A stretch of 26,311 nt of DNA, taken from IMG/VR virus record IMGVR_UViG_3300017912_002925, positions 1 to 26,311 of that record; one strand, given 5' to 3'. The notes under the pieces were generated by a model, which saw only the letters and a list, made by a program, of their open reading frames with translations, did not search any database and was not told the DNA's origin. The position numbers were made by a program, and so were the translations under genes. Below, in pieces: positions 8,062 to 25,876 of this stretch (its first letter is position 1; each line of letters begins with the position of its first letter). The DNA is from a virus. Its lineage: Duplodnaviria > Caudoviricetes.

Positions 8062-8958
8062 ATGGCAAAACCAAAAGGGCATCGCGCCAACAAAGCAAAC
8101 GATTCTTTCGGAACGATCAATAACGATCAAATCTATAAAGGAAAATACCGAGAGGACGTTTACAAAGATGACGACGACGAAGTAGTAGAAGCGACGGACC
8201 CCTCACAAGAAGAAGAAGAGGCTACTCCCGAAACAAATGAATCTACTTCATTTGCAGAACCTGCAAAGGGATCAGATACCGACTATAAAAAACGGTATGA
8301 TGATCTTAAACGACACTATGACTCCAAACTCGAAGAATGGAAACAAGAGAAAGAACAGATTACTAATGCACAACAGATAGGAGCTAAAGAAGGCGTTCCA
8401 ATGGGTGACCTTCCAAAAACTCCCGAAGAACTTGCTGAGTTTAAAGAAAAATATCCGGATGTGTATCATGTTGTTGAAACAATCTCGACCATTCAAGCAG
8501 AGAACCGGCTAAAGGAACTGAAATCAGAGGTAGAAAGTTTAAAAAACCGCGAGCAAAAAGCTCAATCACAAGCGGCGTATCAAGAACTTTTAAATTTACA
8601 TCCTGATTTTCCAGAGCTTAAAGGTAGCACAGAATTTATATCATGGTTGGATGAACAGCCTGATAGTATAGCCGACGGCATATACAAAAATAATTCTGAT
8701 GTTAGATGGGCAAGTAGAGTCCTCGACTTATACAAAGCCGATACAGGTATTGTAAAGAAACGTCAAAAGAAGAGCGATGCTGATGCGGCCTTAGCCGTAA
8801 GCAAAGCCACAGCAAAAGACGTGGTTAAAGAAGCTTCTCCTGACAAAAAAATCTGGAAAGCATCTGAAATCGGTAAAATGAAGCCGTGGCAATTCGAGAA
8901 GCTTGAAGCTGAACTCGATGCCGCACGTGCTGAAGGCCGAATAGACTATACAACTTAA
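8062..8958 (+). CDS. Capsid scaffolding protein
   Basis: Immediately before the major capsid gene. Acidic N-terminus, coiled coil DYKKRYDDLKRHYD, HPDF motif, and a C-terminal helical motif WKASEIGKM...FEKLEAELDAARAEGRI. Strong RBS. Confidence 0.85.
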   Translation: MAKPKGHRANKANDSFGTINNDQIYKGKYREDVYKDDDDEVVEATDPSQEEEEATPETNESTSFAEPAKGSDTDYKKRYDDLKRHYDSKLEEWKQEKEQITNAQQIGAKEGVPMGDLPKTPEELAEFKEKYPDVYHVVETISTIQAENRLKELKSEVESLKNREQKAQSQAAYQELLNLHPDFPELKGSTEFISWLDEQPDSIADGIYKNNSDVRWASRVLDLYKADTGIVKKRQKKSDADAALAVSKATAKDVVKEASPDKKIWKASEIGKMKPWQFEKLEAELDAARAEGRIDYTT

Positions 8959-8991
8959 TAACCTAACTATCTCATAAGGAAGGGTAATAAC

Positions 8992-9936
8992 ATGGCTTTT
9001 AATAGCGCATCAGGTCATAACAACCTGCCTTCAGGGAACTTTACTCCTGAGATTTTTTCTCAGAAAGTCCTGAAGTTTTTCCGTCGTGCGTCGGTAGCCG
9101 AAGATATCACCAACACCGATTACGCTGGTGAAATCGAAAACTACGGCGACACAGTTCGTATCATCAAAGAACCTACAATCACTGTATCTTCTTACTCACG
9201 TGGTGCTGTGGTCAACCCACAAGACCTCGCTGACGATCAGATCACAATGGTTGTTGATCAAGCGAATGCTTTCGCGTTCAAGATTGACGACATCGAAGAG
9301 CGTCAGTCACACGTCAATTTTGAGGCGTTGGCTACATCTTCTGGTGCGTTCTCTTTGAAGCGTAAGTATGATGCTAGCGTTCTTCAAGCAATGGCCGATG
9401 GTGCTGGTAATACTAGCACATCATACGGTACAGCGGCATCCCCAATTAACATCTACACTGCGGCTACTAAAGGTGACAGTGCTGTTAATGCGATGCTTGC
9501 TATGGCACGTGATCTGGATGATGAATCTATTCCAGAAGAGAACCGCTGGTTCGTTGCACCTCCTGCTTTCTACGAAGCATTGTTTGGTGCCGGTGCTAAG
9601 TTGGCAGAAGTACAGGTAACTGGCGACGCAACTTCACCGCTACGTAACGGTCTTGTTATGCAAGGTAACATTGCTGGCTTTAACTGCTACAAGTCAACCG
9701 CGCTTAACAACTCTGGTACAGATGTTGTAACTGTAACCTCACAGGATACTACGAATGATTTCGTAATTCTTGCTGGTCACATGTCTTCTACAGCGACTGC
9801 ATCGCACATCGCTAAGACAGAGGTTGTCCGTTCAACTGAAACATTCAGCGACATCGTTCGTGGCTTGCACGTATTTGGCCGTAAGGTCCTACGTCCAGAA
9901 GCTCTCGTACAGGGTGTTGTTGCAACTGCCGCATAA
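8992..9936 (+). CDS. Major capsid protein (HK97 fold, P22-coat/T7-like)
   Basis: FTPEIFSQKVL, TNTDYAGEI, GDTVRI, IPEENRWFV and DIVRGLHVFGRKVLRPEAL motifs. RBS AAGGAAGG. Codon usage typical of a highly expressed gene. Confidence 0.93.
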   Translation: MAFNSASGHNNLPSGNFTPEIFSQKVLKFFRRASVAEDITNTDYAGEIENYGDTVRIIKEPTITVSSYSRGAVVNPQDLADDQITMVVDQANAFAFKIDDIEERQSHVNFEALATSSGAFSLKRKYDASVLQAMADGAGNTSTSYGTAASPINIYTAATKGDSAVNAMLAMARDLDDESIPEENRWFVAPPAFYEALFGAGAKLAEVQVTGDATSPLRNGLVMQGNIAGFNCYKSTALNNSGTDVVTVTSQDTTNDFVILAGHMSSTATASHIAKTEVVRSTETFSDIVRGLHVFGRKVLRPEALVQGVVATAA

Positions 9937-10453: not shown

Positions 10454-10669
10454 ATGAAACCAATGGGATACACAGAAAGGTTTGCAACAGCCCGTGCTAA
10501 AATGGCAAAGGGCGGCAAAGCTAAGAAGAAAGGTAACAAGATATGTCCGGCGGGTATTGCATGGGCAAAACGTACCTTTGATAAATACCCGAGTGCGTAT
10601 GCTAATCTTGCCGCATCAAAATACTGTAAAGATCCCAACTACGCAAAGAAGTCTAAAGGCAAGAAGTAA
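10454..10669 (+). CDS. Small basic protein (71 aa) with a YTERF...MAKGG leader and a YPSAYAN motif
   Basis: Lys-rich. CPAG...FDKYPSAYANLAASKYC resembles a family of small marine phage proteins (DUF5872-like, from memory). TAATG coupling to the next gene. Confidence 0.8.
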   Translation: MKPMGYTERFATARAKMAKGGKAKKKGNKICPAGIAWAKRTFDKYPSAYANLAASKYCKDPNYAKKSKGKK

Positions 10670-10923
10670 TGGGTGAACTTAAAAAGTGGGTCAAACAAGA
10701 TTGGGTACGTATCGGCACCGATGGAAAAATTAAAGGTAAGTGCGGTACATCCAAAAACAAAAAGAACCCTGACCGCTGTTTACCACGAAGTAAGGCTCAA
10801 AGTTTAAGTCAAAAAGACCGAGCCGCAACTGCACGTAAAAAGAAAGCAGGCGGAGCAAAAGGTAAGCAATTTGTTGCAAACACCAAAAAAGCAAAGGTAA
10901 GATCAAGTGGACGAAAAAAATAA
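10669..10923 (+). CDS. Small basic protein (84 aa)
   Basis: LKKWVKQDWV...KCG...RCLP...KGKQFV pattern, very Lys-rich, coupled start. Confidence 0.8.
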   Translation: MGELKKWVKQDWVRIGTDGKIKGKCGTSKNKKNPDRCLPRSKAQSLSQKDRAATARKKKAGGAKGKQFVANTKKAKVRSSGRKK

Positions 10924-11206
10924 GTACACTGAACGTTGGGAAATGGCTCGTGGTGGTCGCACAAAAAAGAATGTAAATTTATCTGTGGGACGAGGCGAAA
11001 AACGCTCCGTAAAAGAAGGCGGGGGTTTGACAGCTAAAGGTCGCGCAAAGTATAATAGGGCTACGGGATCAAATCTTAAAGCTCCTGTAACTGGTAAAGT
11101 AAAGCCCGGAAGTAAAGCGGCAAAGAGACGCAAGAGTTTTTGCGCTAGATCAAAGGGATGGACAGGCGAACGCGGTAGGGCCGCTCGTCGTAGGTGGAAG
11201 TGCTAG
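10907..11206 (+). CDS. Small basic protein (99 aa) with a YTERW-EMARGG leader
   Basis: GGLTAKGRAKYNRATGSNLKAPV...RRKSFCARS...RRRWKC (DUF6321-like, from memory). GTG start with AAGGT upstream; an alternative ATG lies at 10943. Confidence 0.8.
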   Translation: MDEKNKYTERWEMARGGRTKKNVNLSVGRGEKRSVKEGGGLTAKGRAKYNRATGSNLKAPVTGKVKPGSKAAKRRKSFCARSKGWTGERGRAARRRWKC

Positions 11207-11207
11207 T

Positions 11208-11636
11208 ATGATGAAGTATGACGTTACTACTCTTGAAGATCAACTGATTGATCATGAGGGTTTAGAGCTAAAACCTTACCACTGCACAGCAGACAAACTG
11301 ACTATTGGTGTAGGACGTAATATTCAGGACCGAGGCATCACAGAAGATGAAGCTCGATATCTACTCAAAAACGACATTAAGATTGTAGAAGATGAACTTC
11401 TTACGAGACAACCCGTGGTTGCTGGACTTGATTCTGTTCGTCAGCGTGTGCTTGTTGACATGGGCTTCAATCTCGGACTTCCAATTTTAATGAAGTTCCA
11501 AAACATGTGGGCCGCGATTGAGGACGAGGATTACCATGAGGCCGCACGGCAGATGATGGATTCTCGCTGGGCAGATCAGGTAGGCCGACGCGCAGAGCGT
11601 TTGGCTCAAGCAATGTCTTCAGGTGAGTGGATATAA
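11208..11636 (+). CDS. Lysozyme/endolysin, glycoside hydrolase family 24 (T4-lysozyme-like)
   Basis: HEGLELKPYHCTADKLTIGVGRN gives an E-x8-C-x5-T triad. Also VLVDMGFNLG and MMDSRWADQVGRRA. Confidence 0.92.
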   Translation: MMKYDVTTLEDQLIDHEGLELKPYHCTADKLTIGVGRNIQDRGITEDEARYLLKNDIKIVEDELLTRQPVVAGLDSVRQRVLVDMGFNLGLPILMKFQNMWAAIEDEDYHEAARQMMDSRWADQVGRRAERLAQAMSSGEWI

Positions 11637-11990
11637 GTGTCTAAATTTGTTACGACAGGACTAAGTGTAACAGCAACTTCTGGCGGTGCTTCTGGAAATG
11701 TTTTGTACACTTGTCCTGCTCGTTTTAACGGAGAGATTACTTTCTTTCACATTAGTTCTGGTACGAGTGCAAATAAAAAAATAACAGTCGAGTTTTACCA
11801 CGCAGAAACAACAACGTATCATAAACTTTTAAACGCTCTCGATATGGCGGCGAGCTCTTCACATGAAGTTGGCGGCGCAGGCGCACATATTGCAATGCAT
11901 CCGGGGGATAAGATTGTCTGTTCTACGGATACTGCAAGTAACTTTGATGTGTTAATTTCTGTCACGGAGACACGTAGACTCGAAACATGA
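11637..11990 (+). CDS. Hypothetical beta-rich structural protein (117 aa)
   Basis: GTG directly after the lysozyme stop, AGGTGAG RBS, LYTCP motif. Confidence 0.7.
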   Translation: MSKFVTTGLSVTATSGGASGNVLYTCPARFNGEITFFHISSGTSANKKITVEFYHAETTTYHKLLNALDMAASSSHEVGGAGAHIAMHPGDKIVCSTDTASNFDVLISVTETRRLET

Positions 11991-12211
11991 TTGATTTTAA
12001 AGTATACACATCAAGTAACGGCCCTCTTTCTTCTGAACAACTTGCAGAAATGGCTGTTAACGATATTCTTTCTGTTAGTAAGGACGCTCCACAACCTGTG
12101 CGTGATCAAGCTAACATTTTTCGGGAGCAAATGAAAATAGTGATAACTAAGTACATCACACAAGGCATTAACTCTCATCTTAAGTACATGATACAGAATA
12201 AAGGAAAATAA
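11987..12211 (+). CDS. Hypothetical phage protein (74 aa)
   Basis: ATGA overlap; helical SEQLAEMAVNDILSVS...VRDQA. Confidence 0.7.
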   Translation: MIDFKVYTSSNGPLSSEQLAEMAVNDILSVSKDAPQPVRDQANIFREQMKIVITKYITQGINSHLKYMIQNKGK

Positions 12212-12213
12212 AC

Positions 12214-12672
12214 ATGGCTATTACAACTGCAATGGCAAATAACTTTAAGCGTGATATCTTAAAGGGATTGCATGATTTAACAAGTGACACAATTAAAATT
12301 GCTTTAATTGCTTCAACTCACAGCGGAACCTATGATGCATCAACAAATGCTTACGCTGATGTTACAAGCAACAGTGACGAGATTGGTAACACAGGATCAG
12401 GTAGTAATCCATATAGTGCGGGTGGAGTTACACTAGATAGTGGCACTGTTTCGTTAGATGGCAATACTGCAATATGTGATTTTGCTAATGAAACAATTAC
12501 TAATGCTACTATTTCCGAAAGTGGTGCAATTATATATAACACGACGATTAACTCCAATGATGATGCTGTTTGTGTATTAGATTTTAACGGAACCAAGACA
12601 TCTACAAACGGCGATTTTGCAATTCAGTTCCCAACGGCTGACGCTTCTAACGCTGTCATTCGTATTGCCTAA
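12214..12672 (+). CDS. Putative virion structural protein (152 aa)
   Basis: RBS AAAGGA. MAITTAM...FK...DTIKIAL...Y.AGG..L...GAIIYN...VCVLDF..TKTSTNGDF.IQFP is a pattern common in phage structural regions. Confidence 0.75.
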   Translation: MAITTAMANNFKRDILKGLHDLTSDTIKIALIASTHSGTYDASTNAYADVTSNSDEIGNTGSGSNPYSAGGVTLDSGTVSLDGNTAICDFANETITNATISESGAIIYNTTINSNDDAVCVLDFNGTKTSTNGDFAIQFPTADASNAVIRIA

Positions 12673-12685
12673 GTAGAGCAGTACT

Positions 12686-15600
12686 ATGGGGTACATCGTT
12701 GGACCGTTAATATCGGTTCCTGCCCAGAATAGTGCTACTTGGACTCAACGCACGGCGGACATTTCTGCTTATATCGGGCAGAACGTCCGTCTTGTTGTCT
12801 TATACCAGTCTGGTAGTTCTTTTACTGGAGATGTTCAACTCGATGATTTTAACATCGGGGGTAACACGTTTGACCCTGAAACGGGTACCCATAGTTTTCA
12901 GGTACAGTCTGTTGAAGACAATAGTCAACTCAGTAATGTAAATTACATACAGTCTGACTACGATTCTGTTACATGGTCTTCTCTAACAACAGACGGCAGT
13001 ACTCACGCAACAGGTAAATACGGAAAGTTCTTCCGAGATTCTGGGGGAACTCCATCTGGAGGCACCGGCAATACATCTGGTAACACAGGTAGTTTTTATT
13101 ACTTTGCTGAAACCTCCAGTACAGGCTCTAACAACGATATATGGATTCGTTCACCTGAAGTTACCGTAAACAACGGCACACTTAGTTTTTATACTGCACA
13201 AAATGGGGAGACATCTGGACCCATCTACGCCTATCTTGAAGTGACTTCTGTGCCGGTAAAGGCTGTCTATGGTCTTGGCCGATATGGCGATTCCAACTAC
13301 GGCAAACTTCCAGAAACCGTTCGTGCGCCACTTTCTGTTACCAAAGTAGGGTCCATCTACGGACAACAAAATTACGGAGGTGTTACATACGGTAGTGGTA
13401 GTATCTCTACTACTCACAGCGGTATCTCTGCTACTGGCTCTGTCACTACCGTAACTGTTAACGCAGAATCTTCCCTTACTTTACCTGCCGCAACTTCCAC
13501 AGCTTCTGCAGGTGACGCTTTCACTATTGAAGCGGACGCAAGTCATACTGTGGCCTCTGTACTTAGTACAGCTTCCGCAGGTGACGCTTTCACTATTGAA
13601 GCTGACGCAAGGCATACTGTAGCTTCTGTCCCCAGTACTTCCGCTGTTGGCGATGCTGGTGTTATTGGAATTGCAACAACATCTTTTGTAGGTGTCCAAG
13701 CCACAGGAACCGTAGACGGTAATTCAACTATTCTTGCGGACTCTGTGATTGATTTATCCCCTGTAGACTCTGGCGAAAATGATGGTGCCTTTACTATACA
13801 GGTACCAAGCCCAATAACTAACGGCTTTAGTCCTGAGTTTGGCCTTACTCAAGATTTTCTTGTTGAAAGAACCACAGAACTACTTGAAGACTTTGGCAGA
13901 TCGTCCAATGTTGTTATGGCGTGTGAGGTACAGTTACCCACAGCCGCAAGTGTTTCCGAACCAAAAGCTTTATTTGAGCATGGTGGTGGTGGTATAGGTG
14001 CTTACGTTGGCATCTCCAAAATTAACAACGTGTATCATCTGCGTATTAGAGCGGGTGAGGGCAGTACTAGTGTACAATTACTTAGCGATGACACCGATAT
14101 CGCTGTAGCGGATGTTGCTCTTTCTGAGATACCTGAGTTTGATGGCAGTACACACAATGTAGTATGGGAGTTTAAACCGGGTGCGCCGGGTCGGGTTCGC
14201 TTGTGGATTGACGGTAGGAATATCATCAGTCAAGAAACATCAGGCGGTGGGCAACTAGAATCCGCTCAATGGTCTGGTGGAGGAACGGGAGAGTTTGGTG
14301 GTTCCGCCGGTCCTCCCGGAGGAGTTTTAACCTACGATGGGGGTGCTACTCAATATCAAACAAATACTAACTGGCCTTACACTCCGGGTGATCTGCGAGT
14401 ATACGTCGGTGAACTAGCTGACTTTGGCACAACTCTTACCATAACCGCTGATGCAAATGTAACACCTGAATCTGCAACATCAACAAGTTCTGCAAACACT
14501 CCTAATTTCGTAGGAAATTGTTTGTTTACGTTGCCTAGTCGTGTTTCTGGTTCTAACACAGTTAATGATGTTACTCCAAAAGCAAGTGCAACAGCTACAA
14601 TTGACGGCGGTGCAACTGCAACGTTTACAACACCAAACTTTACTATATTTACAGGTGTATTTGTTACCTTAACTGTTGACGGCGTTTCTGCCACATCAAG
14701 AGTTGATGATAATCTAACAATAAAAGCACAAGCGGTTGCTGTTCCAGAAGCCGCTACTGCAACTTCTTCTATAAATGATAGTATTACTGTTGAGGCGGAC
14801 GTTGTCCATGTTGTTGCCTCAATTCAGGGTGTTTCTGCTAGTGGTGGCGCAGGAACAATTAAAGCCGGGGCGGTTATTGATACACTCCCAAGCGTTCAGG
14901 CAACTTCGTCTGTAAATGACGATTTAACTATTATCGGAAAAGCAGAGTTCACTTTACCTAGTGTTTCTTCAACATCTGCTATTGACGATAATCTTACACT
15001 TAACGCAAGTGCTACAACAGGAGAAGTTCCAAGTGTTTCCGCCACAAGCTCTGTAGAATCTCCTGAAAGCATTGTTGCTCAAGCAAATGTAACACCGGAA
15101 AGTGCGTCTTCTACAGGTCTTGCGAACGGTTCTGCTACTTTTGTTGGGCTTGCTGAATTCACACTTTCTTCTGTAGAGGCAACAGCGACTGCGGATGGTG
15201 ATTCCATTATTGAAGCTGACGCATCGTTTATCGTAGTTTCTGTTGATGGAGTGAGTGCTACTGGAGGCGTTTCAAGCCTTGTTGCTGAAGCAAATGTAAC
15301 ACCAGAAAGTGCGGTAGCGACAGGATCTTCTACTACCCCTACAATACAAGCGCAAGCTGTATTTACTACTGAATCCTTGTTAGCCACATCTGCGGCGAAT
15401 GATGTAACGGTTTCTGCAAAGGCTACTGTCGATCTAGATGGAGTAAGTGCTTCTTCTACCGCAGACGATGGATTAACAATAGTCGTTAATCAAACATTTA
15501 CCGTCGATGCTGTGCAAGGAACAACGGCGGCTAATGATATTGACGCAATTGGAAATTGTAACACTGTCGTCAATTCTGTTTCTGCTACATCGGCAATTGA

Positions 15601-15910
15601 TGAAGACATTACAATTACTGCCGATACGAATTTTGAAATTGCAAGTGTCGAGGCAACGGGCAGTGTTACTACTGCGACGGTTGTAGTTAAAGTTTTAGAA
15701 GTTTTGCCGTCAATTAGTTTGACGGGATCTGTAACGACTACTACAATTACTACAGAAACAAATATTTTTGATGCAAACAACCGCATTGAAAAACGAACAG
15801 TTTACGTTGCCGCAGATAAACCTCGAATTGCTTTTGTAAGCCCAGATAAAGTACGAGTCGTTGACATACCTGCTGATAAACCTAGAACAACTTATGTGGA
15901 GGCCGCTTAA
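12686..15910 (+). CDS. 1074-aa Ser/Thr/Ala/Val-rich fibre-like virion protein with an N-terminal MAM-like domain, a LamG/ConA-like insert and about 23-aa repeats
   Basis: MAM-like motifs GDVQLDDF and GGTPS...YYFAETSS...IRSP. LamG-like DGSTHNVVWEF...VRLWIDG. Repeated SATSS...I.A.A units. Confidence 0.7.
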   Translation: MGYIVGPLISVPAQNSATWTQRTADISAYIGQNVRLVVLYQSGSSFTGDVQLDDFNIGGNTFDPETGTHSFQVQSVEDNSQLSNVNYIQSDYDSVTWSSLTTDGSTHATGKYGKFFRDSGGTPSGGTGNTSGNTGSFYYFAETSSTGSNNDIWIRSPEVTVNNGTLSFYTAQNGETSGPIYAYLEVTSVPVKAVYGLGRYGDSNYGKLPETVRAPLSVTKVGSIYGQQNYGGVTYGSGSISTTHSGISATGSVTTVTVNAESSLTLPAATSTASAGDAFTIEADASHTVASVLSTASAGDAFTIEADARHTVASVPSTSAVGDAGVIGIATTSFVGVQATGTVDGNSTILADSVIDLSPVDSGENDGAFTIQVPSPITNGFSPEFGLTQDFLVERTTELLEDFGRSSNVVMACEVQLPTAASVSEPKALFEHGGGGIGAYVGISKINNVYHLRIRAGEGSTSVQLLSDDTDIAVADVALSEIPEFDGSTHNVVWEFKPGAPGRVRLWIDGRNIISQETSGGGQLESAQWSGGGTGEFGGSAGPPGGVLTYDGGATQYQTNTNWPYTPGDLRVYVGELADFGTTLTITADANVTPESATSTSSANTPNFVGNCLFTLPSRVSGSNTVNDVTPKASATATIDGGATATFTTPNFTIFTGVFVTLTVDGVSATSRVDDNLTIKAQAVAVPEAATATSSINDSITVEADVVHVVASIQGVSASGGAGTIKAGAVIDTLPSVQATSSVNDDLTIIGKAEFTLPSVSSTSAIDDNLTLNASATTGEVPSVSATSSVESPESIVAQANVTPESASSTGLANGSATFVGLAEFTLSSVEATATADGDSIIEADASFIVVSVDGVSATGGVSSLVAEANVTPESAVATGSSTTPTIQAQAVFTTESLLATSAANDVTVSAKATVDLDGVSASSTADDGLTIVVNQTFTVDAVQGTTAANDIDAIGNCNTVVNSVSATSAIDEDITITADTNFEIASVEATGSVTTATVVVKVLEVLPSISLTGSVTTTTITTETNIFDANNRIEKRTVYVAADKPRIAFVSPDKVRVVDIPADKPRTTYVEAA
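13499..13636 (+). repeat. Near-perfect 69-bp tandem duplication (23 aa)
   Basis: ACAGCTTCTGCAGGTGACGCTTTCACTATTGAAGC... at 13499 and ACAGCTTCCGCAGGTGACGCTTTCACTATTGAAGC... at 13568. Confidence 0.9.
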
Positions 15911-16227
15911 TGGCGTTAAAATGGCCGGACAAAGACCCGGATGAACAGCTTGATTTTAGTGTAGATTGGTCGCGGTATTTGGGTAGCGCAACTTTATCTT
16001 CTGTCACGTGGAAAATTGACGATGCCTCTGGCGTAAAACAAACATGGGCTAGTGCGGCCTTCGTTAATAGTCTTCAACACGTAAGTTCGTCTAATACGAA
16101 TACAGTCGCTACAATTGAGATTGGCTCGGGTGACGCAAATACAACTTACAACATTTACTGCGCCGTTACTACTTCAGCAGGAAATAGTACGGAGCGTAAA
16201 GTTATACTCAAGGTTAGGGAAAGATAA
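15910..16227 (+). CDS. Putative fibre-attachment/adaptor protein (105 aa)
   Basis: N-terminal WPDKDPDEQLDFSVDW motif, beta-rich, TAATG coupling on both sides. Confidence 0.7.
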   Translation: MALKWPDKDPDEQLDFSVDWSRYLGSATLSSVTWKIDDASGVKQTWASAAFVNSLQHVSSSNTNTVATIEIGSGDANTTYNIYCAVTTSAGNSTERKVILKVRER

Positions 16228-16907
16228 TGGCGTACAATTACTTAGGACTCGTAAATGATGCCGCCATTAGGCTGAACGAAACAGCCCTTACGTCCAGTAA
16301 CTTTACAACAGCTAAAGGATTCTACCCGACGTTAAAAGAGGCAGTTAATGCATCGATTAAACACATCAACCAAGCGCATTTCTTTTGGCCGTACAACCAC
16401 AACAAAGAAGAAGTAACGTTTGAGGCAGGCGTGTCACGCTATTCTCTTGTTGAAAACGCAAAGTTTGTTGACTTTGGTTCCTTTAGATTAAAACGTGATA
16501 CATCTCTTAATGTGGGCGAGGGACGTAGGCTACCTCAACTTACATACGCTGAATACCTCGACGTATATATTGATCAAGAATACGAGACTGACTCTACAAA
16601 AGGTGGCGTGTCACGAAATGTCGTACGTACTCCCAACGAAGAATTTATTGTTGTTCCGATGCCTGACAAAGCGTACGAGATTGAGTACGAGTACTACATG
16701 GAGCCGGTAGATCTTTCTAGTTCGACTGATGTCCCCTCAATACCGGAAAGATTTAGGCATGTGATTGTAGACGGTGTTATGTACTACGCCTATATGTTTC
16801 GTGACAATATTGAGATGGCAAACATATCACAAAGTAAGTTTGAAAACGGCATAAAGAATATGCGTACACTCCTCGTTAACGAACACGCTTACTTTAGGGC
16901 ATTCTAG
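16227..16907 (+). CDS. Tail adaptor/tail tubular protein A-like
   Basis: NYLGLVN...RLNE, PMPDKAYEIEYEYY and DVPSIPERFRHVIVDG motifs; positioned before the nozzle gene. Confidence 0.8.
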   Translation: MAYNYLGLVNDAAIRLNETALTSSNFTTAKGFYPTLKEAVNASIKHINQAHFFWPYNHNKEEVTFEAGVSRYSLVENAKFVDFGSFRLKRDTSLNVGEGRRLPQLTYAEYLDVYIDQEYETDSTKGGVSRNVVRTPNEEFIVVPMPDKAYEIEYEYYMEPVDLSSSTDVPSIPERFRHVIVDGVMYYAYMFRDNIEMANISQSKFENGIKNMRTLLVNEHAYFRAF

Positions 16908-18448
16908 TGGATAGATGGCAAACGTTTCCACTCGAGTTTGCGGGTGGTTTAATTACTAACATGGCCCCCGTACAGCAGGGCGTACAGTTTCCCGGTTCTG
17001 CGGTAACCCTACGTAACTTTGAACCTTCCGTTGAGGGCGGCTACCGCCGTATCGAAGGATTCACAAAGTGGGATAGCAACGCAATTACTGGTAGCGGAGT
17101 TATCCGTGGAGTCGTTGAGTTTGAACAGGCCGCGATTGCTACACGTGGAACACATGTGTACCGCTCTGGAGGTTCTGGGTGGACTCAATTAACTGACAAC
17201 GCTGTTTACGGATCTGGCGGCGTTAATATCTCAGGCACAGGCCGAACACGGTTTGCTAAACACCACTTTGGATCAAACGATGTCTTAATCATTACGGACG
17301 GAAACGACAAGCCTTATAAATGGGACGGCACAACGTTTGCACAAATAACTACGGCACCGGGAGATGTGGACGGGGCAACTCACGTTATCGCGCACAGAGA
17401 TCAGCTATTCTTTGGTAAGTCGACAACTTTAGCATATTCCGCACCTTTTAGCGACACCGACTTTACAGCGGCTTCTGGCGGCGGTACAATAGAATTTGAC
17501 AGAGCTATCACAGACTTAGTGTCATTTCGTGAGAGCCTTTTCATCTTCACCGAAAATTCAATATTTGAACTACAGGGTACGCCGGGGCAAGACCCTAACA
17601 CTTCAAACGCTTCGTTAAAACCGATAACTCGAGACCTCGGCGCAGTCAGGTCTGATACCGCACAAGAAATAGGCGGTGACATTATATTTTTGGCACACGA
17701 CGGATTAAGGTTGTTGTCAGCTACAGAACGCAACAATGACTTTGGACTTGCGTCTGTTACAAGAAAGATACAGCCGACGATGACGAATTTCGTCAACGCA
17801 TCTTCAAGTTTTTCGAGTATCGTTATTCGAGAAAAATCACAGTATAGATTGCTGGGATATAACCAGAGCTACACTGCTAACGCCGCTCGAGGAATACTAG
17901 GGACACAGTTTTCTGCTCAAGGCGGTACAGACATGGCGTGGGCAGAGTTACGCGGAATTAATGCATACGTAGCGTCTAGTAGCTTAAACGATAACACAGA
18001 GTACGCGCTGTTTGCGAATGCAGATGGGTATGTGTATCGACTAGAGTCTGGAAACACCTTTGACGGAACAGATATCGCGGCTACGTTTAAAACACCTTCG
18101 CTTGCGATTACAGACCCGACAACACGTAAAAATATGTACAAGGCTAAATTGTTTCTAGACCCTCAGGGCGGTTTTACTGCAAGAATGGGAACTGAATTTG
18201 ATTTTGGCGAGACAGACGTAGTACAGCCTGATGACATAGTGTTTTCAAACGAGGCCGCAGAAGTCTCTTTTTACGGTTCAGCAGAGTACGGTACAGAAAA
18301 ATTTGGCGGAAGATTACAGTACATTTTCGATACACAGCTTGTTGGGTCAGGCAACGTTGTGTCTTTTAACTTTTCAAGTGTTTCGGATGATCCGCCGTAC
18401 TCACTTGATTCAATGCTAATTCAATACGGCCAGTACGGTCGGAGGTAA
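16907..18448 (+). CDS. Tail nozzle/tail tubular protein B-like (beta-propeller)
   Basis: GGL start, NFEPSVEGGYRRIEG, and propeller-like repeats (LVSFRESLFIFT, QEIGGDIIFLAHDGLR). GTG start in a TAGTG overlap. Confidence 0.8.
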   Translation: MDRWQTFPLEFAGGLITNMAPVQQGVQFPGSAVTLRNFEPSVEGGYRRIEGFTKWDSNAITGSGVIRGVVEFEQAAIATRGTHVYRSGGSGWTQLTDNAVYGSGGVNISGTGRTRFAKHHFGSNDVLIITDGNDKPYKWDGTTFAQITTAPGDVDGATHVIAHRDQLFFGKSTTLAYSAPFSDTDFTAASGGGTIEFDRAITDLVSFRESLFIFTENSIFELQGTPGQDPNTSNASLKPITRDLGAVRSDTAQEIGGDIIFLAHDGLRLLSATERNNDFGLASVTRKIQPTMTNFVNASSSFSSIVIREKSQYRLLGYNQSYTANAARGILGTQFSAQGGTDMAWAELRGINAYVASSSLNDNTEYALFANADGYVYRLESGNTFDGTDIAATFKTPSLAITDPTTRKNMYKAKLFLDPQGGFTARMGTEFDFGETDVVQPDDIVFSNEAAEVSFYGSAEYGTEKFGGRLQYIFDTQLVGSGNVVSFNFSSVSDDPPYSLDSMLIQYGQYGRR

Positions 18449-18451
18449 AAA

Positions 18452-19843
18452 ATGGGAACTGGATACGTTCGTAACGATACTTCTAATAATATTGCGGATG
18501 GTAACGTCATTAATGCGTCAGACCTTGACGGGGAGTTCGACGCGGTCCAAGCGGCATTTAATGCTTCGACAGGCCACTCGCACGATGGAACAACAGGTGA
18601 AGGGCCACAGTTAACTACTGCTGGTCTTGCAGATGATGCTGTTACCGGGGCAAAAATTGACTCGACAACGACTGTGACGGCGGCGAGTTTTGTTGGACCG
18701 CTGACGGGAAATGCGAGTACAGCAACGACGCTACAAACAGCGCGAACTATCGCGGGGCAGTCTTTTGATGGTTCGGCTAATATATCGATAGCACCGACAG
18801 ACTTAACGAGTGTTACGTCTACAGCTAGTGAGATTAACATCCTTGATGGTGCGACTGTTACTACAGCAGAATTAAATAAACTAGACGGGTTTACGGGCGC
18901 TGTTGCTGATCTCAACTATGCAAAAGACCTAAGAGCAACAGGCGTTACAACCACAGAGTTTGATAAGCTGGACGGATTGACAGCGTCTACAGCAGAACTA
19001 AACATTCTTGATGGAGTAACAGCTACAGCGACAGAGATTAACAAGATTGACGGCTACACAGGTAGCACAGCCGAGCTAAACATTCTAGATGGTGTTACTG
19101 CTACCACTGCTGAACTCAATATTATGGATGGCGTAACAGCCACTACCGCAGAACTTAACTATGTTGACGGCGTAACATCCAATATTCAGACACAGTTAGA
19201 TGCTAAGGGTAACGTATCTGCCCTTTCTGATTTGGGTGTCACTGCGACTGCCGCTGAACTCAACAAGCTCGATAATGTAACTACGAGTGCTACTGAGTTC
19301 AATATTCTTGATGGCGATACTTCTGCTACTTCAACAACCCTTGCTGACGCAGATCGGGTGGTAGTTAACGACAGCGGTACGATGGTACAGGTTGCTATGA
19401 CAGATGTTAAGACGTACACCAACAGCGGTGTACTTCTATCTTCTGCAATTGGGTCTACCGTTCAAGCACACGATGCTGATACAGCAAAGACGGATGTTAC
19501 TCAAACCTTTTCAAAGGCACAGCGTGGTTCTACTCTAACTGACACAACAAACACAGGAAATGTTACTCTAGACTTTGCAACGTATCAGAACTTTGTACTG
19601 ACGCTTACAGGTAACGTTACGCTTGTAAACCCGACGACAGAGGCCGTAGGACAGTCTGGGTTTATTGTGTTAATTCAAGACGGCACAGGCAGTCGTACTT
19701 TGTCTTTAGGTACTGACTACGAAACAGCGGCGGGGGGTGGAATTACTTTGTCTACAGCCGCAAGCACAACTGATATTGTTCCATACATCGTTGCGGCATC
19801 AGGGCGTATTCTGCTTGGCGCACCTCAACTGGCGTTTGCATAA
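18452..19843 (+). CDS. Tail fibre protein with TAELNILDGV repeats
   Basis: N-terminal anchor (IADGNVINASDLDGEFDAV...GHSHDG), TARTIAGQSFDGSANI motif, repeats, and a C-terminal LIQDGTGSRTL domain. GGAGGT RBS. Confidence 0.85.
   Translation: MGTGYVRNDTSNNIADGNVINASDLDGEFDAVQAAFNASTGHSHDGTTGEGPQLTTAGLADDAVTGAKIDSTTTVTAASFVGPLTGNASTATTLQTARTIAGQSFDGSANISIAPTDLTSVTSTASEINILDGATVTTAELNKLDGFTGAVADLNYAKDLRATGVTTTEFDKLDGLTASTAELNILDGVTATATEINKIDGYTGSTAELNILDGVTATTAELNIMDGVTATTAELNYVDGVTSNIQTQLDAKGNVSALSDLGVTATAAELNKLDNVTTSATEFNILDGDTSATSTTLADADRVVVNDSGTMVQVAMTDVKTYTNSGVLLSSAIGSTVQAHDADTAKTDVTQTFSKAQRGSTLTDTTNTGNVTLDFATYQNFVLTLTGNVTLVNPTTEAVGQSGFIVLIQDGTGSRTLSLGTDYETAAGGGITLSTAASTTDIVPYIVAASGRILLGAPQLAFA
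18821..19315 (+). repeat. Degenerate repeats of about 13 aa (T-A-E-L-N-x-L-D-G-V-T-A-T)
   Basis: About ten copies are visible in the translation, with diverged synonymous codons. Confidence 0.85.
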
Positions 19844-22800
19844 TGTTTGATAATTCCCAGTTTTTCGGCGCAGGGGCGGATCCATTCTATCCGCACACTA
19901 TCAATGGCTCTCTTTTTATTGACGGTTCTAATTCTGCCAGCCTTTCTCGTGCGGCTGTTGCTGTTGACGATACCACAAAAGCGACATGGTCTTTTTGGTG
20001 GAAAAGGGCTAGTGGAATATATACAAACTTTTCTAGTGAGGGAGAGTTTTTCCTTCAAAACACTAACGGAACTAACCGTGGTTTTCGGCTCAGAACAAAC
20101 TCTTTAGGTGAAGGCACGTTAAGTCTGTACGTTAACCCAACGTCAGGTACTTCAGCTTACATAATAACTGATAGAGAGTTTAGGGACCAAGCGGGTTGGG
20201 TTCATGTTATATGGCATTGGGATAGTGCTAACGCTGTCGAATCTGAGCGTGTAAGGCTTTATGTTAATGGAACTAGAGTTACTGAATTTAGTCAAGAAAC
20301 TTATCCCCCATTAAATGACGCTCATGATTTTAATACTGGTTTTGGTGGTTGGAGAGTTGGGGCTCTCTCTAGCTACCAAGGAACAAGTGCGGGTAAGAGG
20401 GCATTTAGAGGGTACCTGACAGAGTTTCACTTTATGGACGGGTACAACTATGGCCCTGAATACTTTGGTGAAACAAAAAGTGGAGTTTGGGTTCCAATAG
20501 AAGTTACTGGCGTAACATATGGCACGGGCGGTTGGTACTTGCCTCTGACATCAAACGGCAATGACGCTAGCGGTAACGACAACCATTTTACTGAAAATAG
20601 TGTCGGTGCCCATGATTACAAAACAGACAGTCCAACAAATAACTTTTGCGTTTTAGATGCAAACAATTCTTATAACTTCCGCCTTTCGGAAGGAAACTTA
20701 AAGTTTGCCAATACAACTACACGCTGGGATGGCGCACTTGCTACTTTTGCTGTGCCCAAAACAGGAAAGTGGTACTGGGAAGTTTACATTAATGCAGGAA
20801 CTAACGTAGTTACAGGTCTAGCTAACGGCAGTTCAAATCTAATTAACGATACTGGGTATGATGAATACGAGAACTATTCCTATGGAATAAACCAGACAAG
20901 TGTTCGCTACGGCACAACAGTTATTTCTACCGAGTCTCCCCCAACTTCGTCTTCTGGGGATGTTTTGGGATGGTATGTTGATGATGGTGATGTGTATCTT
21001 TATAAAAATGGAACACAAATTGCGTCACCAACTTCTTGGACATCCAACATGAGCGCAGTGGATTACGATTACTTTCCGCAAATATTTGCGTATGGCAGTG
21101 GCACTGGCGCAACGTTCAATTTTGGACAAGACGGAACATTTGCAGGAGCAACAACTGCGGGAGGTAACTCAGATTCAGAGGGTATAGGGGACTTTAAATA
21201 CACGGTTCCGACAGGAGCAAAAGCATTATGTACCAGTAATTTGCCCGCTCCTGCTTTAGCAGACCCTTCAAACGAAGAAGAAGGTAGAGATTACTTTGAA
21301 ACATTTACATACACAGGTAACGGTGGAGCGTTACAGGTTGGTGATGTTACTAAGAAACCTGCTGATACAACTACGATCAGTAATTCTCTTCTTTTTGTTG
21401 ATGACAACAGTTCTTTTCTAAGCCGTACGCCCAGTACGGGCGGAAGTCAAACCACCTTTACTTTTAGTTGTTGGGTCAAAAGAGCGCAGACTAACAACCA
21501 AACATATCTATTTTCTGCTGGAGCTAGTGGTGCTACGACTGAATTGTTTTATATACAATTAAGAAACGATGCTAACAACCATATTCTTACAGTTGTTTGG
21601 CGAGATGGAAGCTCAACAACTAGGCAACTTACAGCAAGCCGTCAGTTTAAAAACCTAAGTCTTTGGGATCACTTTGTGGTTGCTGTTAAAACTGACGAGT
21701 CAACAGCCGCAGATAGGATAAAGGTTTATGTTAACGGCATACTAGAAACAAATTTCTCCTCCGATGACCGCTCTACGTTATCTGGCAGTTCTAGTTTGGC
21801 CGTAAACGCCGCATCAACGTTGCATACAATAGGTGCGTATAGCGTATCTTCTTCCGGTACTTACTTAGATGCGTATTTAGCGGAAGTTCATTTCATTGAC
21901 GGTACAGCCTACGAAGCGTCAGACTTTGGTAGTTTTGATGCAGGTGGAATCTGGATTCCTAAAGCAGTCTCTGGGCTTACTTATGGTACTAATGGTTTCC
22001 ATCTAGATTTTTCTAGTACAACCCCCGCTACCCAAAGCCTGTCCTTTACAGAATACTGGTCAGATCTTAGTAACTGGACAGGATCTGGAAGTGGTAGCAC
22101 TTCCCTTTCTAATGGTACGGTTTCTTTTGCTCCTACAAGTAGCAGTAGTTGGAATGGGCGTACTTTAACGCATACTTTATCCGCTGATTATCAGGATTTT
22201 GATATCACCTTCAACGATTGGACTATCACCAATGTTAGTAATGATTTAGTTCGGTATCAAATATGGCTAAGAGATTCAGACAACAACGTTGTTGCGGGAT
22301 ACTATTATAGTGATTCTCATGTGCAGACATCTGGTGGCACTGAAGACAATTTATGGGCTTACAATGGCAGTAATCAAATTGAGGACGTACTGTTAGAAGT
22401 AGGCACAGCGGCAAGAACGTATACGCTAGGTCCAGCAGACTTTAGGATTGCAAGAACGGGCAGAGTAGTTACGTTTGATATGCCCGGATTTACTAACATA
22501 TCTGCCATGTCTGCAAATATGAATCCAGTGGATAAGATTGTTTTAACAGTAGAGAGGCTTTCTGGCTACTCATACTCTCCGAATAGTTTAGGAACAATCT
22601 CCGCTACTGGCTCTCCTGTAATTACTACGATAGACGATCAAGAAGGGTCTAATGATTGGACCTTAAACAACATGAATTTTGCGGATTCTCAAACCACAGA
22701 TAGCCCTACAGATAATCATGCTGTCTTTAACTCAGATAGCGGAAACACCTTTACTGATGGAAACCTGTTTACTACCACAGGAACTTCCTCTAATCGCAGA

Positions 22801-24597
22801 TCCGTAGGTACGCTTGGTATGCGAACAGGAAAGCATTACTGGGAGGTAACATTAGGCTCAAGTGTAAGTTATGGCCCTGCAATAGGAATACATAGCAAAG
22901 CGATACCAGTTACAACTAATAGCTTTGTTTTAAATGATGGTGATCCCTCTGCGGGGTATTATAAGGACGGTAATAAATATGTTAACGGCACTGCATCAAG
23001 TTATGGCAGTGCAATGCAAGCGTTTGACACTGTGGGCGTTGCTTATGATGCGGATGCTAAGACTTTAGAGTTCTACTTAAACAATGTTTCTCAAGGGTCT
23101 TTTGGTGTTGGAAGTGAATTTTCAGATGTAGCTTATCCTGTTGTTGGAGACGGCTCTGGTTCGCAAGGCGTTTCTGTCTCCATAAATTTTGGTCAGCTTG
23201 GTTTTGTTTATACTCCACCAACTGGCTACACTGCTCTCTCTCAGAACAACCTATCGGTTGACGAGAACAACCTTGAATCCCCTGACTTTGTGTGGATTAA
23301 GAACCGTGATCAAGCAGATTCTCATCAGCTATACGACAGTGTTCGTGGTATACAAAAAGTTATTTTAAGTGATCCGGGTACAAATCCCTCTCAAGCAAAC
23401 GCACCTAATGGCTTGCTAGACTTTAATAAAAACGGTTTTACCATTGGTAATGACAATACGGTAAACACATTAGGGGAAGACTACGTTGCATGGAATTGGA
23501 AATCTTCTGGAACGGCGCAGTCGGCTACATATGCAGTAAAGGTTGTTTCTGATAGCGGGAATAAATACCGCTTTGACGACTTTGGAAGCAGTGCTGTAAC
23601 TTTAGAGTTATCTGAAGGTGGCACCTACACTTTTGACCAGTCTGATAGCTCAAACTCTGGACATCCTCTTCGTTTCTCAACAACATCTGATGGAACTCAT
23701 GGCGGCGGATCTGAGTACACCACGGGTGTTACAACGAACGGAACGCCCGGTTCAGCAGGGGCTTACACAAGAATTACCGTAGCCGCAGGCGCACCAACTC
23801 TTTACTACTATTGTAGCAGTCACTCTGGTATGGGTGGTCAGGCAAATACCCCGTTTACAAAGGGGTCTAGTAATTTTAAAGGGACGATACAGTCGAAAGT
23901 TCTTGCCAATACGGATAGTGGATTTAGTATTGTTGATTGGACGTATAGTACAACTAGCAACACTGTCGGGCACGGACTAAGCTCTGCGCCAGAAATGATA
24001 CTTGTAAAAGGGTACGATTCAAGCTCCAGTTTAGAATGGATTGTTTGGCACAAAGCCATTGGAACTATGGCCAATAGAAAGTACCTAAAGCTAAATGAAA
24101 ACATTACTACAGCCACAGGGACAAACGCCATATGGGGAGACTCAGATCCTACAACTACAGTGTTTGGGCAGGGATCAGGGTTAGCTTTTGATGGTGACGG
24201 ATGTATTGCCTACTGCTTCCACAGTGTCGATGGTTTCAGTAAATTCGGTAGTTTTGAAGGTAACGAAGAGGCTGGGCAATCCGACGGAGCCTTTGTATAC
24301 ACAGGGTTTGCTCCTGCTTTTGTTATGATTAAAAACTTCGACAGTGCGGCTAATTGGATTATTCTCGATAATAAGCGGCCTAATACAAGTGGGTCAGCAT
24401 TTAACCCTAAAGATACAAGTTCCGGTTTGTATCCTGACTCATCAAGCGCAGAAAGCACTGATGCTACATATCGGGGCGACTTTTTTTCAAATGGTTTTTC
24501 TGTTGCTTCAGGCTCAACAGCGTGGAACAACGGAAACAATACATTTCTTTTTATGGCATTTGGTGAGACACCATTCAAATACGGTAATGCGAGGTAA
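19843..24597 (+). CDS. Large tail/receptor-binding protein (1584 aa): two LamG+SPRY modules, a PDFVWIK-type repeat domain and a cupredoxin-like insert
   Basis: LamG motifs (TWSFWWKR, WVHVIW, RLYVNG; TFSCWVKR, KVYVNG), SPRY motifs (GKWYWEV, GKHYWEV), PDFVWIKNRD/PEMILVK/PAFVMIK repeats, and YYYCSSHSGMGG. Confidence 0.85.
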   Translation: MFDNSQFFGAGADPFYPHTINGSLFIDGSNSASLSRAAVAVDDTTKATWSFWWKRASGIYTNFSSEGEFFLQNTNGTNRGFRLRTNSLGEGTLSLYVNPTSGTSAYIITDREFRDQAGWVHVIWHWDSANAVESERVRLYVNGTRVTEFSQETYPPLNDAHDFNTGFGGWRVGALSSYQGTSAGKRAFRGYLTEFHFMDGYNYGPEYFGETKSGVWVPIEVTGVTYGTGGWYLPLTSNGNDASGNDNHFTENSVGAHDYKTDSPTNNFCVLDANNSYNFRLSEGNLKFANTTTRWDGALATFAVPKTGKWYWEVYINAGTNVVTGLANGSSNLINDTGYDEYENYSYGINQTSVRYGTTVISTESPPTSSSGDVLGWYVDDGDVYLYKNGTQIASPTSWTSNMSAVDYDYFPQIFAYGSGTGATFNFGQDGTFAGATTAGGNSDSEGIGDFKYTVPTGAKALCTSNLPAPALADPSNEEEGRDYFETFTYTGNGGALQVGDVTKKPADTTTISNSLLFVDDNSSFLSRTPSTGGSQTTFTFSCWVKRAQTNNQTYLFSAGASGATTELFYIQLRNDANNHILTVVWRDGSSTTRQLTASRQFKNLSLWDHFVVAVKTDESTAADRIKVYVNGILETNFSSDDRSTLSGSSSLAVNAASTLHTIGAYSVSSSGTYLDAYLAEVHFIDGTAYEASDFGSFDAGGIWIPKAVSGLTYGTNGFHLDFSSTTPATQSLSFTEYWSDLSNWTGSGSGSTSLSNGTVSFAPTSSSSWNGRTLTHTLSADYQDFDITFNDWTITNVSNDLVRYQIWLRDSDNNVVAGYYYSDSHVQTSGGTEDNLWAYNGSNQIEDVLLEVGTAARTYTLGPADFRIARTGRVVTFDMPGFTNISAMSANMNPVDKIVLTVERLSGYSYSPNSLGTISATGSPVITTIDDQEGSNDWTLNNMNFADSQTTDSPTDNHAVFNSDSGNTFTDGNLFTTTGTSSNRRSVGTLGMRTGKHYWEVTLGSSVSYGPAIGIHSKAIPVTTNSFVLNDGDPSAGYYKDGNKYVNGTASSYGSAMQAFDTVGVAYDADAKTLEFYLNNVSQGSFGVGSEFSDVAYPVVGDGSGSQGVSVSINFGQLGFVYTPPTGYTALSQNNLSVDENNLESPDFVWIKNRDQADSHQLYDSVRGIQKVILSDPGTNPSQANAPNGLLDFNKNGFTIGNDNTVNTLGEDYVAWNWKSSGTAQSATYAVKVVSDSGNKYRFDDFGSSAVTLELSEGGTYTFDQSDSSNSGHPLRFSTTSDGTHGGGSEYTTGVTTNGTPGSAGAYTRITVAAGAPTLYYYCSSHSGMGGQANTPFTKGSSNFKGTIQSKVLANTDSGFSIVDWTYSTTSNTVGHGLSSAPEMILVKGYDSSSSLEWIVWHKAIGTMANRKYLKLNENITTATGTNAIWGDSDPTTTVFGQGSGLAFDGDGCIAYCFHSVDGFSKFGSFEGNEEAGQSDGAFVYTGFAPAFVMIKNFDSAANWIILDNKRPNTSGSAFNPKDTSSGLYPDSSSAESTDATYRGDFFSNGFSVASGSTAWNNGNNTFLFMAFGETPFKYGNAR

Positions 24598-24603
24598 TAA
24601 ATA

Positions 24604-25056
24604 ATGTGGACTTATCAAGGTCTTAGAGTAAGAGAAGGCCGGTCATGGGCTAACAGTGACGGTGTTCAGCACCCTTCAAACTGGAACATTTGGACAAATG
24701 ATCAGAAGATAGCCGCAGGGTTAGCTTGGGTAGATGATCCGGTGGTGTCCGCTCCTGTGATTGATCTTGCAACACAAAAAGCAAATGCGATTGCTACGGT
24801 GAAAGCAAAAGCGGGGGATTTACTAGAAAAAACAGATTGGCAGGTCATAAAGGCTACAGAAGTGTCGGACTATACTGTCCCATCTGAAGTGACCACCTAT
24901 CGTGCGGCAGTGCGTACTGCAAGTAATACTATTGAGAGTGCGATTAACAATGCGGCGGATCAAGCGGCATTTAATGCTTTAAGTGATGCTCCTGTTGATG
25001 AAAACGGAGATCCTACTGGCAATGCCCCAATAGACGATTGGCCTGACGAAATCTAA
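24604..25056 (+). CDS. Putative tail fibre assembly/chaperone-like protein (150 aa)
   Basis: Follows the fibre gene. LLEKTDWQVIK...YRAAVR...WP pattern. GAGGT RBS. Confidence 0.7.
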   Translation: MWTYQGLRVREGRSWANSDGVQHPSNWNIWTNDQKIAAGLAWVDDPVVSAPVIDLATQKANAIATVKAKAGDLLEKTDWQVIKATEVSDYTVPSEVTTYRAAVRTASNTIESAINNAADQAAFNALSDAPVDENGDPTGNAPIDDWPDEI

Positions 25057-25235
25057 TGATGGACTCGACGCAAAGCCAACTAGAAAAGCACGAGGCTGAA
25101 TGCGCTATCCGCTACCAGTATGTACAGGATAGTTTGCAGTCATTGGATAAGCGTATGTGGCGTTTAGAAGCCATGATCATGGGATCTACACTAGCTATTG
25201 TAGGTACTGCTGTAGCGTTACTGGTCAATGTGTAA
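25056..25235 (+). CDS. 59-aa coiled-coil protein with a C-terminal TM helix (not in the ORF track); possibly holin- or XhlA-like
   Basis: MMDSTQSQLEKHEAECAIRYQYVQDSLQSLDKRMWRLEAMIMGSTLAIVGTAVALLVNV*. TAATG overlaps at both ends. Confidence 0.8.
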   Translation: MMDSTQSQLEKHEAECAIRYQYVQDSLQSLDKRMWRLEAMIMGSTLAIVGTAVALLVNV

Positions 25236-25876
25236 TGAAGTACACGGAGCGGTGGTCAAAGAGTCGTAGAAAAATGGCTACGGGAGGACAGGTAACTCCC
25301 GGAGAACAGGCAAGAGATCTTGCTGAAGGATGGCGTCGTGCAACTCAACAGGAACCTCCCCGTTTTATTGCTGAAGCGGACCTTCCAGAGTCTTTTCGGA
25401 CGGCACAGAAAGAAGGGCTTAAAATAGCAAAGCAACTATCCCAACAATTTAGGCAGGAATTTAGTGACGTAGACTTTAGTAACCCCACTTCTTTTTCTGA
25501 AGAAACACGACAGCGACTTAACGAAGCTCAAGATCGTTACCGTAGAATACAAGACGAGAGAACAAAAGATCAAAGAGCAGTGATGGAGGCGTTTACTCGT
25601 CAAAATCCCCGTGTTCAAATTGTTAAAGACGTTGCAAAAGCTAGAGCGGAGTACGAAAGAAACATCGCAAAAAACACTGAAGCCCTAGCTAAAGCAAGAC
25701 AAGCGTTGCCTCAACAACCAGCCCGTGCCGCAGAGATGGTTACTTACAAAATTCGAGGAACACCTTTTAGGGCTGTGGGGACTAAAGAGAAACGAGACCA
25801 GTACATTGACGACTACAACCGCAAGCAACAGATAGCCAAACTAGAACGTCAAAAAGCCGCACGGAAAAAAAGATAA
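25235..25876 (+). CDS. 213-aa helical protein with a YTERW...MATGG leader (start corrected from 25157)
   Basis: The ATG at 25235 overlaps the TAA of the 59-aa gene and is in frame with the track ORF. Begins MKYTERWSKSRRKMATGGQV. Confidence 0.75.
   Translation: MKYTERWSKSRRKMATGGQVTPGEQARDLAEGWRRATQQEPPRFIAEADLPESFRTAQKEGLKIAKQLSQQFRQEFSDVDFSNPTSFSEETRQRLNEAQDRYRRIQDERTKDQRAVMEAFTRQNPRVQIVKDVAKARAEYERNIAKNTEALAKARQALPQQPARAAEMVTYKIRGTPFRAVGTKEKRDQYIDDYNRKQQIAKLERQKAARKKR

Follow-up and report, generated by a model that had tools for sequence, protein, structure and literature searches.

Tagged genes in the morphogenesis arm

The window analysed here is the whole 26,311-nt stretch of the uncultured virus record IMGVR_UViG_3300017912_002925, and the element under study is a short peptide tag, a nine-residue core beginning with YTER that is joined to a Gly-Gly seam of the form MAxGG, carried by three of its genes (Table 1). 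It represents the morphogenesis arm of a marine podophage of the HMO-2011 type. On Pfam and PHROGs matches, and for the scaffold-like gene on position, it contains terL, the genes for an SU10-like portal, a scaffold-like protein and the capsid, three small genes for basic proteins, a lysozyme gene and tail genes. Group membership rests on homologous capsid, portal and TerL proteins together with a genome of about 52-56 kb; the top isolate match of the window capsid was HTVC033P (58.9%), and the other best matches were HTVC103P-type phages, CRP phages and HMO-2011. Record G001 has the window sequence over a 2,425-nt overlap and adds about 27.6 kb beyond it, and two relatives that are 99-100% complete, G002 and G005, measure 52.8 and 52.7 kb. 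Two CXXCXGXG motifs were found in the polymerases of each of G001, G002 and G003; such a pair is given as a criterion for HMO-2011-type phages in the accessible text of PMC9038755.

An earlier note, made from the sequence alone, had described a shared N-terminal leader on three unrelated proteins, and the three peptides, their positions and their codons were confirmed. A six-frame scan of the window found YTER three times (10469, 10925, 25241) and MAxGG three times (10502, 10943, 25274), each pair sharing one open reading frame (ORF), where 0.017 YTER[WF] and 0.08 MAxGG are expected per window from composition. A loose core pattern had two exact matches in G001, namely the third copy of the window and a second match that does not code for the peptide, so that the three copies appear to be the full set of the genome. 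The start at 10454 has a GGGGG Shine-Dalgarno (SD) sequence, the GTG at 10907 has AAGG upstream, and the start at 25235 overlaps the preceding stop as TAATG. The bodies after GG are unrelated, as had been claimed: two of the three pairs gave no BLASTP match, and those of 10907 and 25235 shared only 18 residues at E=0.01, a stretch between two K/R-rich sequences. The spacer of one to six residues between the two sub-motifs was literally correct but conceals a 9-mer of fixed spacing (YTERFATAR, YTERWEMAR, YTERWSKSR); what had been read as a bipartite tag with a variable spacer is a fixed core plus a GG seam.

Table 1. Positions of the tagged genes, the core copies and the other features discussed (window positions unless a locus is named)
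Feature	Position	Strand	Remarks
71-aa basic protein (20 K+R, 3 D+E)	10454..10669	+	Tag, then KIC..PSAYA body; phrog_27331, profile spans residues 27-71 only
Core copy 1, YTERFATAR	10469..10495	+	MAKGG at 10502-10516
84-aa basic protein	10669..10923	+	Untagged in window; phrog_23735
99-aa basic protein	10907..11206	+	GTG start; tag, then DUF6321 body (PF19846, E=2.6e-17)
Core copy 2, YTERWEMAR	10925..10957	+	Runs straight into GG; MARGG from 10943 overlaps the core
213-aa protein	25235..25876	+	Between tail-fibre block and lysis-ejection block; no known family (Pfam, PHROGs)
Core copy 3, YTERWSKSR	25241..25288	+	MATGG at 25274-25288
646-aa protein	6034..7974	+	Between portal and scaffold; conserved domain of ~160 aa bracketed by xxGG seams (6934, 6961, 7417), variable payloads, no YTER core
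Portal, SU10-like	3900..5996	+	Pfam; candidate docking surface
Scaffold-like protein and major capsid protein	8062..9936	+	Scaffold by position (phrog_13678); directly upstream of the basic cassette
658-aa gene	1719-3695	+	Between terL and portal
Small ORF	5728-6027	+	In another frame across the portal 3' end; probable ATG near 5803
1,074-aa protein	12686-15910	+	S/T/A/V-rich beta-repeat protein
Tail fibre	18452-19843	+	Short internal repeats
223-aa protein	L226:13229-13897 (G001)	-	phrog_3704, labelled ferredoxin
Separate polymerase and exonuclease ORFs	L227:2211-4900 (G001)	-	Small genes between them
Basic repeat protein	L232:19352-19993		Closes the structural arm in G001-G003
First ejection-block protein	L233:9460-10845 (G003)	-	RRK-MAEGG leader

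The core and its Gly-Gly flanks in relatives

Codon-degenerate scans yielded 47, 55 and 8 loci from viruses and 120 from metagenomes; the metagenome set included many chance matches (such as YTDRF in dehydrogenase-like ORFs and short closed frames), which were removed before counting with a net-charge and flanking-glycine filter. Across the relatives the core is the fixed 9-mer Y-T-[EDQSA]-R-[WF]-x-x-[AS]-R. An automatic sort placed 38 of the 84 distinct copies at the N-terminus, 18 internally and 28 at the C-terminus, with at least one contig-truncated copy (L023) probably wrongly placed as N-terminal. Position is therefore free, and the N-terminal leader of the earlier note is not supported, 46/84 copies being internal or C-terminal; a tag that ends two to three residues before the stop cannot be a removable leader. 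Relatives' homologs of the 84-aa protein (phrog_23735) carry the tag at the C-terminus. The tag-bearing bodies fall into nine BLAST-unlinked clusters, five downstream and four upstream of the tag, and are mostly very basic small proteins. Both the portability of the tag among unrelated bodies and its enrichment in related phages, which the earlier note had suggested checking, were thus borne out.

The GG pair persists where a body is attached and tends to be lost at the free end of the core. It precedes the core in 45/46 internal or C-terminal copies against 12/38 N-terminal ones, and follows it in 56/56 N-terminal or internal copies against 12/28 C-terminal ones, the joined-side counts being partly forced by the search patterns and the free-side decay not.

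For residues written into the search pattern, counts from pattern-found copies would be circular, so two independent checks of selection were used. Arg9, which no search pattern fixes, is kept in 54/55 pattern-found cores. All 13/13 bystander cores, for which as many as two mismatches were tolerated, keep Y1, T2, R4, [WF]5 and R9, and their pairwise codon differences are 153 synonymous against 34 non-synonymous, counted between related copies and hence not independent events. Arg4 is encoded by both CGN and AGR codons. The synonymous spread agrees with the earlier claim of conservation at the protein level, and because of it a DNA repeat or promoter was rejected as the sole cause, with SD/start overlap contributing in the C-terminal copies. 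The 213-aa protein is rare (five proteins found); MKYTERW is kept in three of its four aligned homologs, two of these being 45-48% identical overall, while the mid-body drifts, and the fourth homolog record begins at MAVGG. The core was also present on 6/6 distinct copies of the KIC..PSAYA body (phrog_27331) in motif-blind loci. The SD sequence is stronger at the upstream start than at the Met of MAxGG in 32/35 N-terminal copies scored; a start at that Met, which the earlier note had named as evidence against its proposal, is unlikely in those copies, and the YTER part is probably translated.

The core is patchy on a capsid tree that also includes pattern-found loci (8 changes, at least 4 forced). 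Where portal, scaffold, capsid and cassette were all present (34 loci, 16 of them positive), the label changes needed were 2 on the portal tree, 3 on the scaffold tree and 4 on the capsid tree, against about 11.5 when shuffled; the core is confined to one portal-defined clade. Capsid swaps at L354, L035 and L015 left the motif in place, which disfavours the capsid protein as an allele-specific partner. In the fetched stretches of four isolates (HMO-2011, HTVC033P, HTVC103P and phiM6) YT.R[WF] was not found; xxGG does recur there, in gp25 and gp49 of HMO-2011 and in gp79 of HTVC103P. Many bodies of relatives without the core are the same as tagged ones, one of them having an xxGG seam upstream in 14/15 such copies. 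Proteins that consist purely of (KSKG-MAKGG)n are encoded by many of the relatives. Tandem K-S-K-G-M-A-K-G-G-like proteins of three to six repeats lie downstream of the capsid gene in core-less relatives (L244, L251, L263, L288, L291, L305-L307, L313, L315, L318, L319), and a similar basic repeat protein closes the structural arm in G001-G003. The first ejection-block protein of G003 has an RRK-MAEGG leader that resembles the one at window position 25235 but contains no YTERW core; the corresponding proteins of G001 and G002 have no such leader.

Cargo context, cleavage and rival explanations

A virion-cargo context, as the earlier note had proposed, is borne out by the position of the basic cassette after the capsid gene, by the DUF6321 body, which is part of S-CREM2 gp137, and by enrichment of the seam in the portal-scaffold gene. 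S-CREM2 gp137 is listed in the virion proteome table with 4 peptides and 4.1% coverage (PMC10665884, accessible text). With protein classes assigned by position, [MFY][AKQ]xGG was enriched only in the portal-scaffold gene (6 against 0.87 shuffled, P=3e-4, in 5/7 proteins). It was not enriched in 55 shell and tail proteins (1 against 2.8) or in 29 replication proteins (0 against 1.0), and in the block of large ejection proteins 4 were observed against 1.9 expected (P=0.13, not significant), so that a tag loading the ejection pathway in general, also part of the earlier proposal, is not supported. The 646-aa protein encoded by the portal-scaffold gene is predicted to be virion cargo. Pesticin-like PF16754, one of the variable payloads, occurs in 7 among its 120 listed homologs; among the 105 of these that were anchored, the motif lies up to 70 residues before the conserved domain in 85 and after it in 46, and it occurs 1.87 times per protein in the homologs against 0.51 shuffled. 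The [MFY]xxGG half would then be older and wider than the YTERW half, the latter probably being a clade-specific addition to an older [MFYA]xxGG module seam.

An Atlas lead (0.84) pointed from the domain of the 646-aa protein to crAss cargo C1. The C1 protein of crAss001, gp45, has 8 AxGG sites against 1.46 shuffled, and 1/1000 shuffles reached 8. The pieces resolved by cryogenic electron microscopy, residues 214-245 and the portal-bound 425-552 (PMC10172136, accessible text), lie between AxGG sites 207/261 and 425/560. Since the portal-bound piece begins at the Ala of an AxGG site, the GG stays on the downstream domain and no cut after GG occurs there. Lambda gpH has FATGG733 and YATGG778 (residues 733-782) within the glycine-rich region that holds the unmapped gpH*/gpHC cut, as located in the accessible text of PMC12617516. 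By analogy, [MFYA]-A-x-G-G might be one ancient virion-cargo code that HMO-2011-type podophages have in common with crassviruses and with tape measure proteins of the lambda-like kind. Its seams would attach to the portal or tail and be cleaved immediately in front of Ala, with YTERWxxAR as a specificity helix added in one clade. We regard this as quite improbable; if true, it would locate the lambda gpH cut, crAss C1 would be reread as processed pieces, and YTERWxxAR would be a portable capsid-loading tag.

Our preferred explanation, with a rough probability of 0.45, is that the tag stays uncut and would serve, wherever in a protein it lies, as a docking handle by which many unrelated and mostly basic proteins enter the assembling head. 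The 9-mer would form a short helix (spacing of Y1, R4, W5, A8 and R9) on Gly-Gly hinges, and this helix may bind the inner-head surface, for which the portal vertex or its cargo domain is a first guess. Tagged proteins would be recruited to the inner head during assembly and end up in the virion, where binding of the packaged DNA by their basic bodies is predicted; the helix itself would have been added in one clade to the older xxGG seam.

Several observations weigh against this docking handle. In a motif-blind, capsid-anchored set (80 loci fetched) only 7/50 loci with a visible cassette had the core, most relatives lacking the putative helix, and as many as 99 phage records contain a DUF6321 body; the helix is therefore not needed family-wide. 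The portal-tree result is one of descent and not proof of binding, and may reflect descent of the genome backbone only. In most C-terminal copies the W-S-K-A-R-G codons (TGG-AG) double as the GGAG SD sequence of the next gene, and several also run into its GTG start, so translational coupling explains part of their conservation. Retention of GG at the joints is compatible with cutting as much as with a hinge. The S-CREM2 peptides are listed for gp137 as a whole, of which DUF6321 is one part. Finally, the 646-aa domain had no match above the curated cut-off to PF25725 (crAss_CARG1), a model that scores gp45 at 222 bits, and neither its sequence nor its fold could be connected significantly with crAss C1, its structural model being weak (predicted local distance difference test, pLDDT, 64; predicted template modelling score, pTM, 0.42). 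Neither the crAss C1 nor the lambda gpH domains have significant sequence or fold homology to it, and their likeness is thus an analogy.

One rival explanation is a maturation cut at the seam, after GG or before Ala, by an unrecognised phage or host protease, which would free the modules and the YTERW peptide inside the head. T4 internal proteins and adenovirus core proteins are released by maturation cleavage inside the particle. Retention of GG at the joints and its decay at free ends would fit such a cut, as would the placing of both resolved C1 pieces between AxGG sites and of FATGG733 and YATGG778 in the region of the gpH*/gpHC cut (both from the accessible texts). In the T4-like S-CRM01 gp34 the DUF6321 body is preceded by ..VKEE, an xxE seam that resembles the consensus of the T4 gp21 site, which is xxE. 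On the other side, Pfam and PHROGs gave no protease or C39 family among 92 ORFs (26 of the window and 66 chosen from G001-G003, not every small ORF), many of which have no family at all, and NCBIfam gave no protease family in the 26 ORFs rescanned. The T4-like or bacteriocin-like cleavage of the earlier note is accordingly not supported; for a T4-style cleavable N-terminal leader this follows from the lack of a protease family match and of significant enrichment in the ejection proteins. No protease fold was found in models of the 646-aa domain and the 223-aa protein, both so weak that they leave room for a hidden protease. The 223-aa phrog_3704 gene is the best orphan-enzyme candidate, and its model (pLDDT 55) had no significant fold match. 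Pure (KSKG-MAKGG)n proteins and six-residue C-terminal tails are implausible substrates, cleavage is unmentioned in the main text of the crAss paper (PMC10172136), and no report of gp45 cargo proteolysis was found in the literature searched. Proteomics of the T7-related podophage phiRIO-1, which belongs to a different homology group, showed neither processing nor a protease (PMC4819975, accessible text); the accessible text of PMC9860041 has no proteomics. Overall we consider cutting unlikely.

The overlap of C-terminal copies with the SD and start signals of the next gene is what a gene-building part would show, that is, a basic nucleic-acid-binding peptide that doubles as a recombination and translation-coupling handle, spreads between cassette genes by shuffling and lacks a specific partner protein. 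Tandem copies, the patchy capsid tree (8 changes), the same bodies working without the helix in most relatives and the resemblance of tandem MAKGG repeat proteins to simple polycations all point the same way. Yet the SD sequence lies further downstream than Y1, T2 and R4, which vary only synonymously in the 13/13 bystander cores, charge does not account for the aromatic and Thr residues, and the 213-aa gene 14 kb away keeps the tag while its body drifts; we judge this account rather improbable. Position-free short motifs are also typical of adaptor-binding signals, and the tag could bind a host or phage factor in the infected cell (chaperone, protease adaptor, reader protein), unrelated to packaging. 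Clade restriction could then track the host, and the conserved 223-aa gene, with weak tandem-Tudor-like matches (E>=0.3), has basic-protein genes as neighbours in G001, G003 and HTVC033P. The late-operon site adjoining the capsid gene, the seam enrichment in the portal-scaffold gene and the lack of significance of the Tudor matches make an intracellular adaptor very unlikely.

The highly conserved 223-aa protein has 1,173 homologs. The top Foldseek rows of its model were mostly tandem Tudor readers (Spindlin1, UHRF1, SAWADEE).

Neighbouring genes, known systems and significance

The 658-aa gene looks like a fast-evolving, degenerate tyrosine-recombinase fold within the head operon: its aligned homologs are 17-19% identical, and one had a weak integrase match (phrog_1, E=8.6e-4). 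A single-sequence search missed it in 5/5 motif-less records and a position-based check was used instead, by which the terL-portal gap exceeds 1.5 kb in 73/76 rows, the isolate phiM6 among them. As a co-occurring partner of the tag the gene was rejected, a large ORF being present there in 72/72 uncultured loci, motif or not. HMO-2011, HTVC033P and HTVC103P have no counterpart at this position. A small gene at the position matching the ORF across the portal 3' end occurs in HMO-2011 and phiM6. The tail-fibre and beta-repeat genes vary greatly among relatives. In G001-G003 the polymerase and exonuclease domains are on separate ORFs, which differs from the single-chain enzyme described for the HMO-2011-type group.

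The T4 capsid-targeting sequence is carried by internal proteins, is strictly N-terminal and is cut by gp21 at Glu. The tag resembles it as a short peptide common to unrelated small basic phage proteins that are likely head cargo, and differs in being also internal or C-terminal, in ending in Gly-Gly and in the lack of a protease match; it may work in the same way, but it does not keep to the N-terminus. Crassvirus C1 (gp45, PF25725) is likewise modular and AxGG-punctuated, with a bracketed portal-bound domain as in the 646-aa protein. No YTERW helix was seen in it, its hidden Markov model and fold gave no significant match to the 646-aa domain, and the motif is not described in the main text of PMC10172136. 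S-CREM2 gp137 and S-CRM01 gp34, both from T4-like cyanophages, share the basic DUF6321 module, gp137 being listed in the virion proteome (PMC10665884, accessible text); there it is the C-terminal module of acidic proteins of ~500 aa behind an xxE seam, whereas here it is free-standing behind the tag. In the C-terminal region of lambda gpH, FATGG and YATGG flank a GEFV-type unit that by eye is like the repeated unit of the 646-aa domain, but this is a siphophage tail protein with no significant profile match (E=2.9).

Double-glycine leaders have an acidic amphipathic pattern of the LSxxELxxIxGG type and are handled by C39-ABC exporters. The three window copies, unlike the 46/84 internal or C-terminal ones in relatives, share with them 17-21 N-terminal residues ending in GG. 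The tag is not a bacteriocin leader: it is K/R-rich with an aromatic core rather than acidic and hydrophobic-patterned, it is position-free, it stands in a phage late-gene context, and no linked C39 peptidase-ABC exporter was matched among the phage ORFs scanned.

No description of the motif was found in the literature searched, which did not cover subscription papers, and the literature found did not mention DUF6321; the helix extension and its HMO-2011 setting are the additions made here. In the sea, phages of the HMO-2011 type rank among the most abundant viruses (PMC9038755, accessible text). Their small basic genes have had no assigned function so far. The way in which internal cargo is selected by phages that have no recognisable head protease is poorly understood, and a nine-residue position-free tag would be a direct handle on this question. 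If the tag works, it could become a cargo-loading tool, and the wider xxGG seam may bear on the cut site of lambda gpH and on why crAss C1 occupies separate virion compartments.

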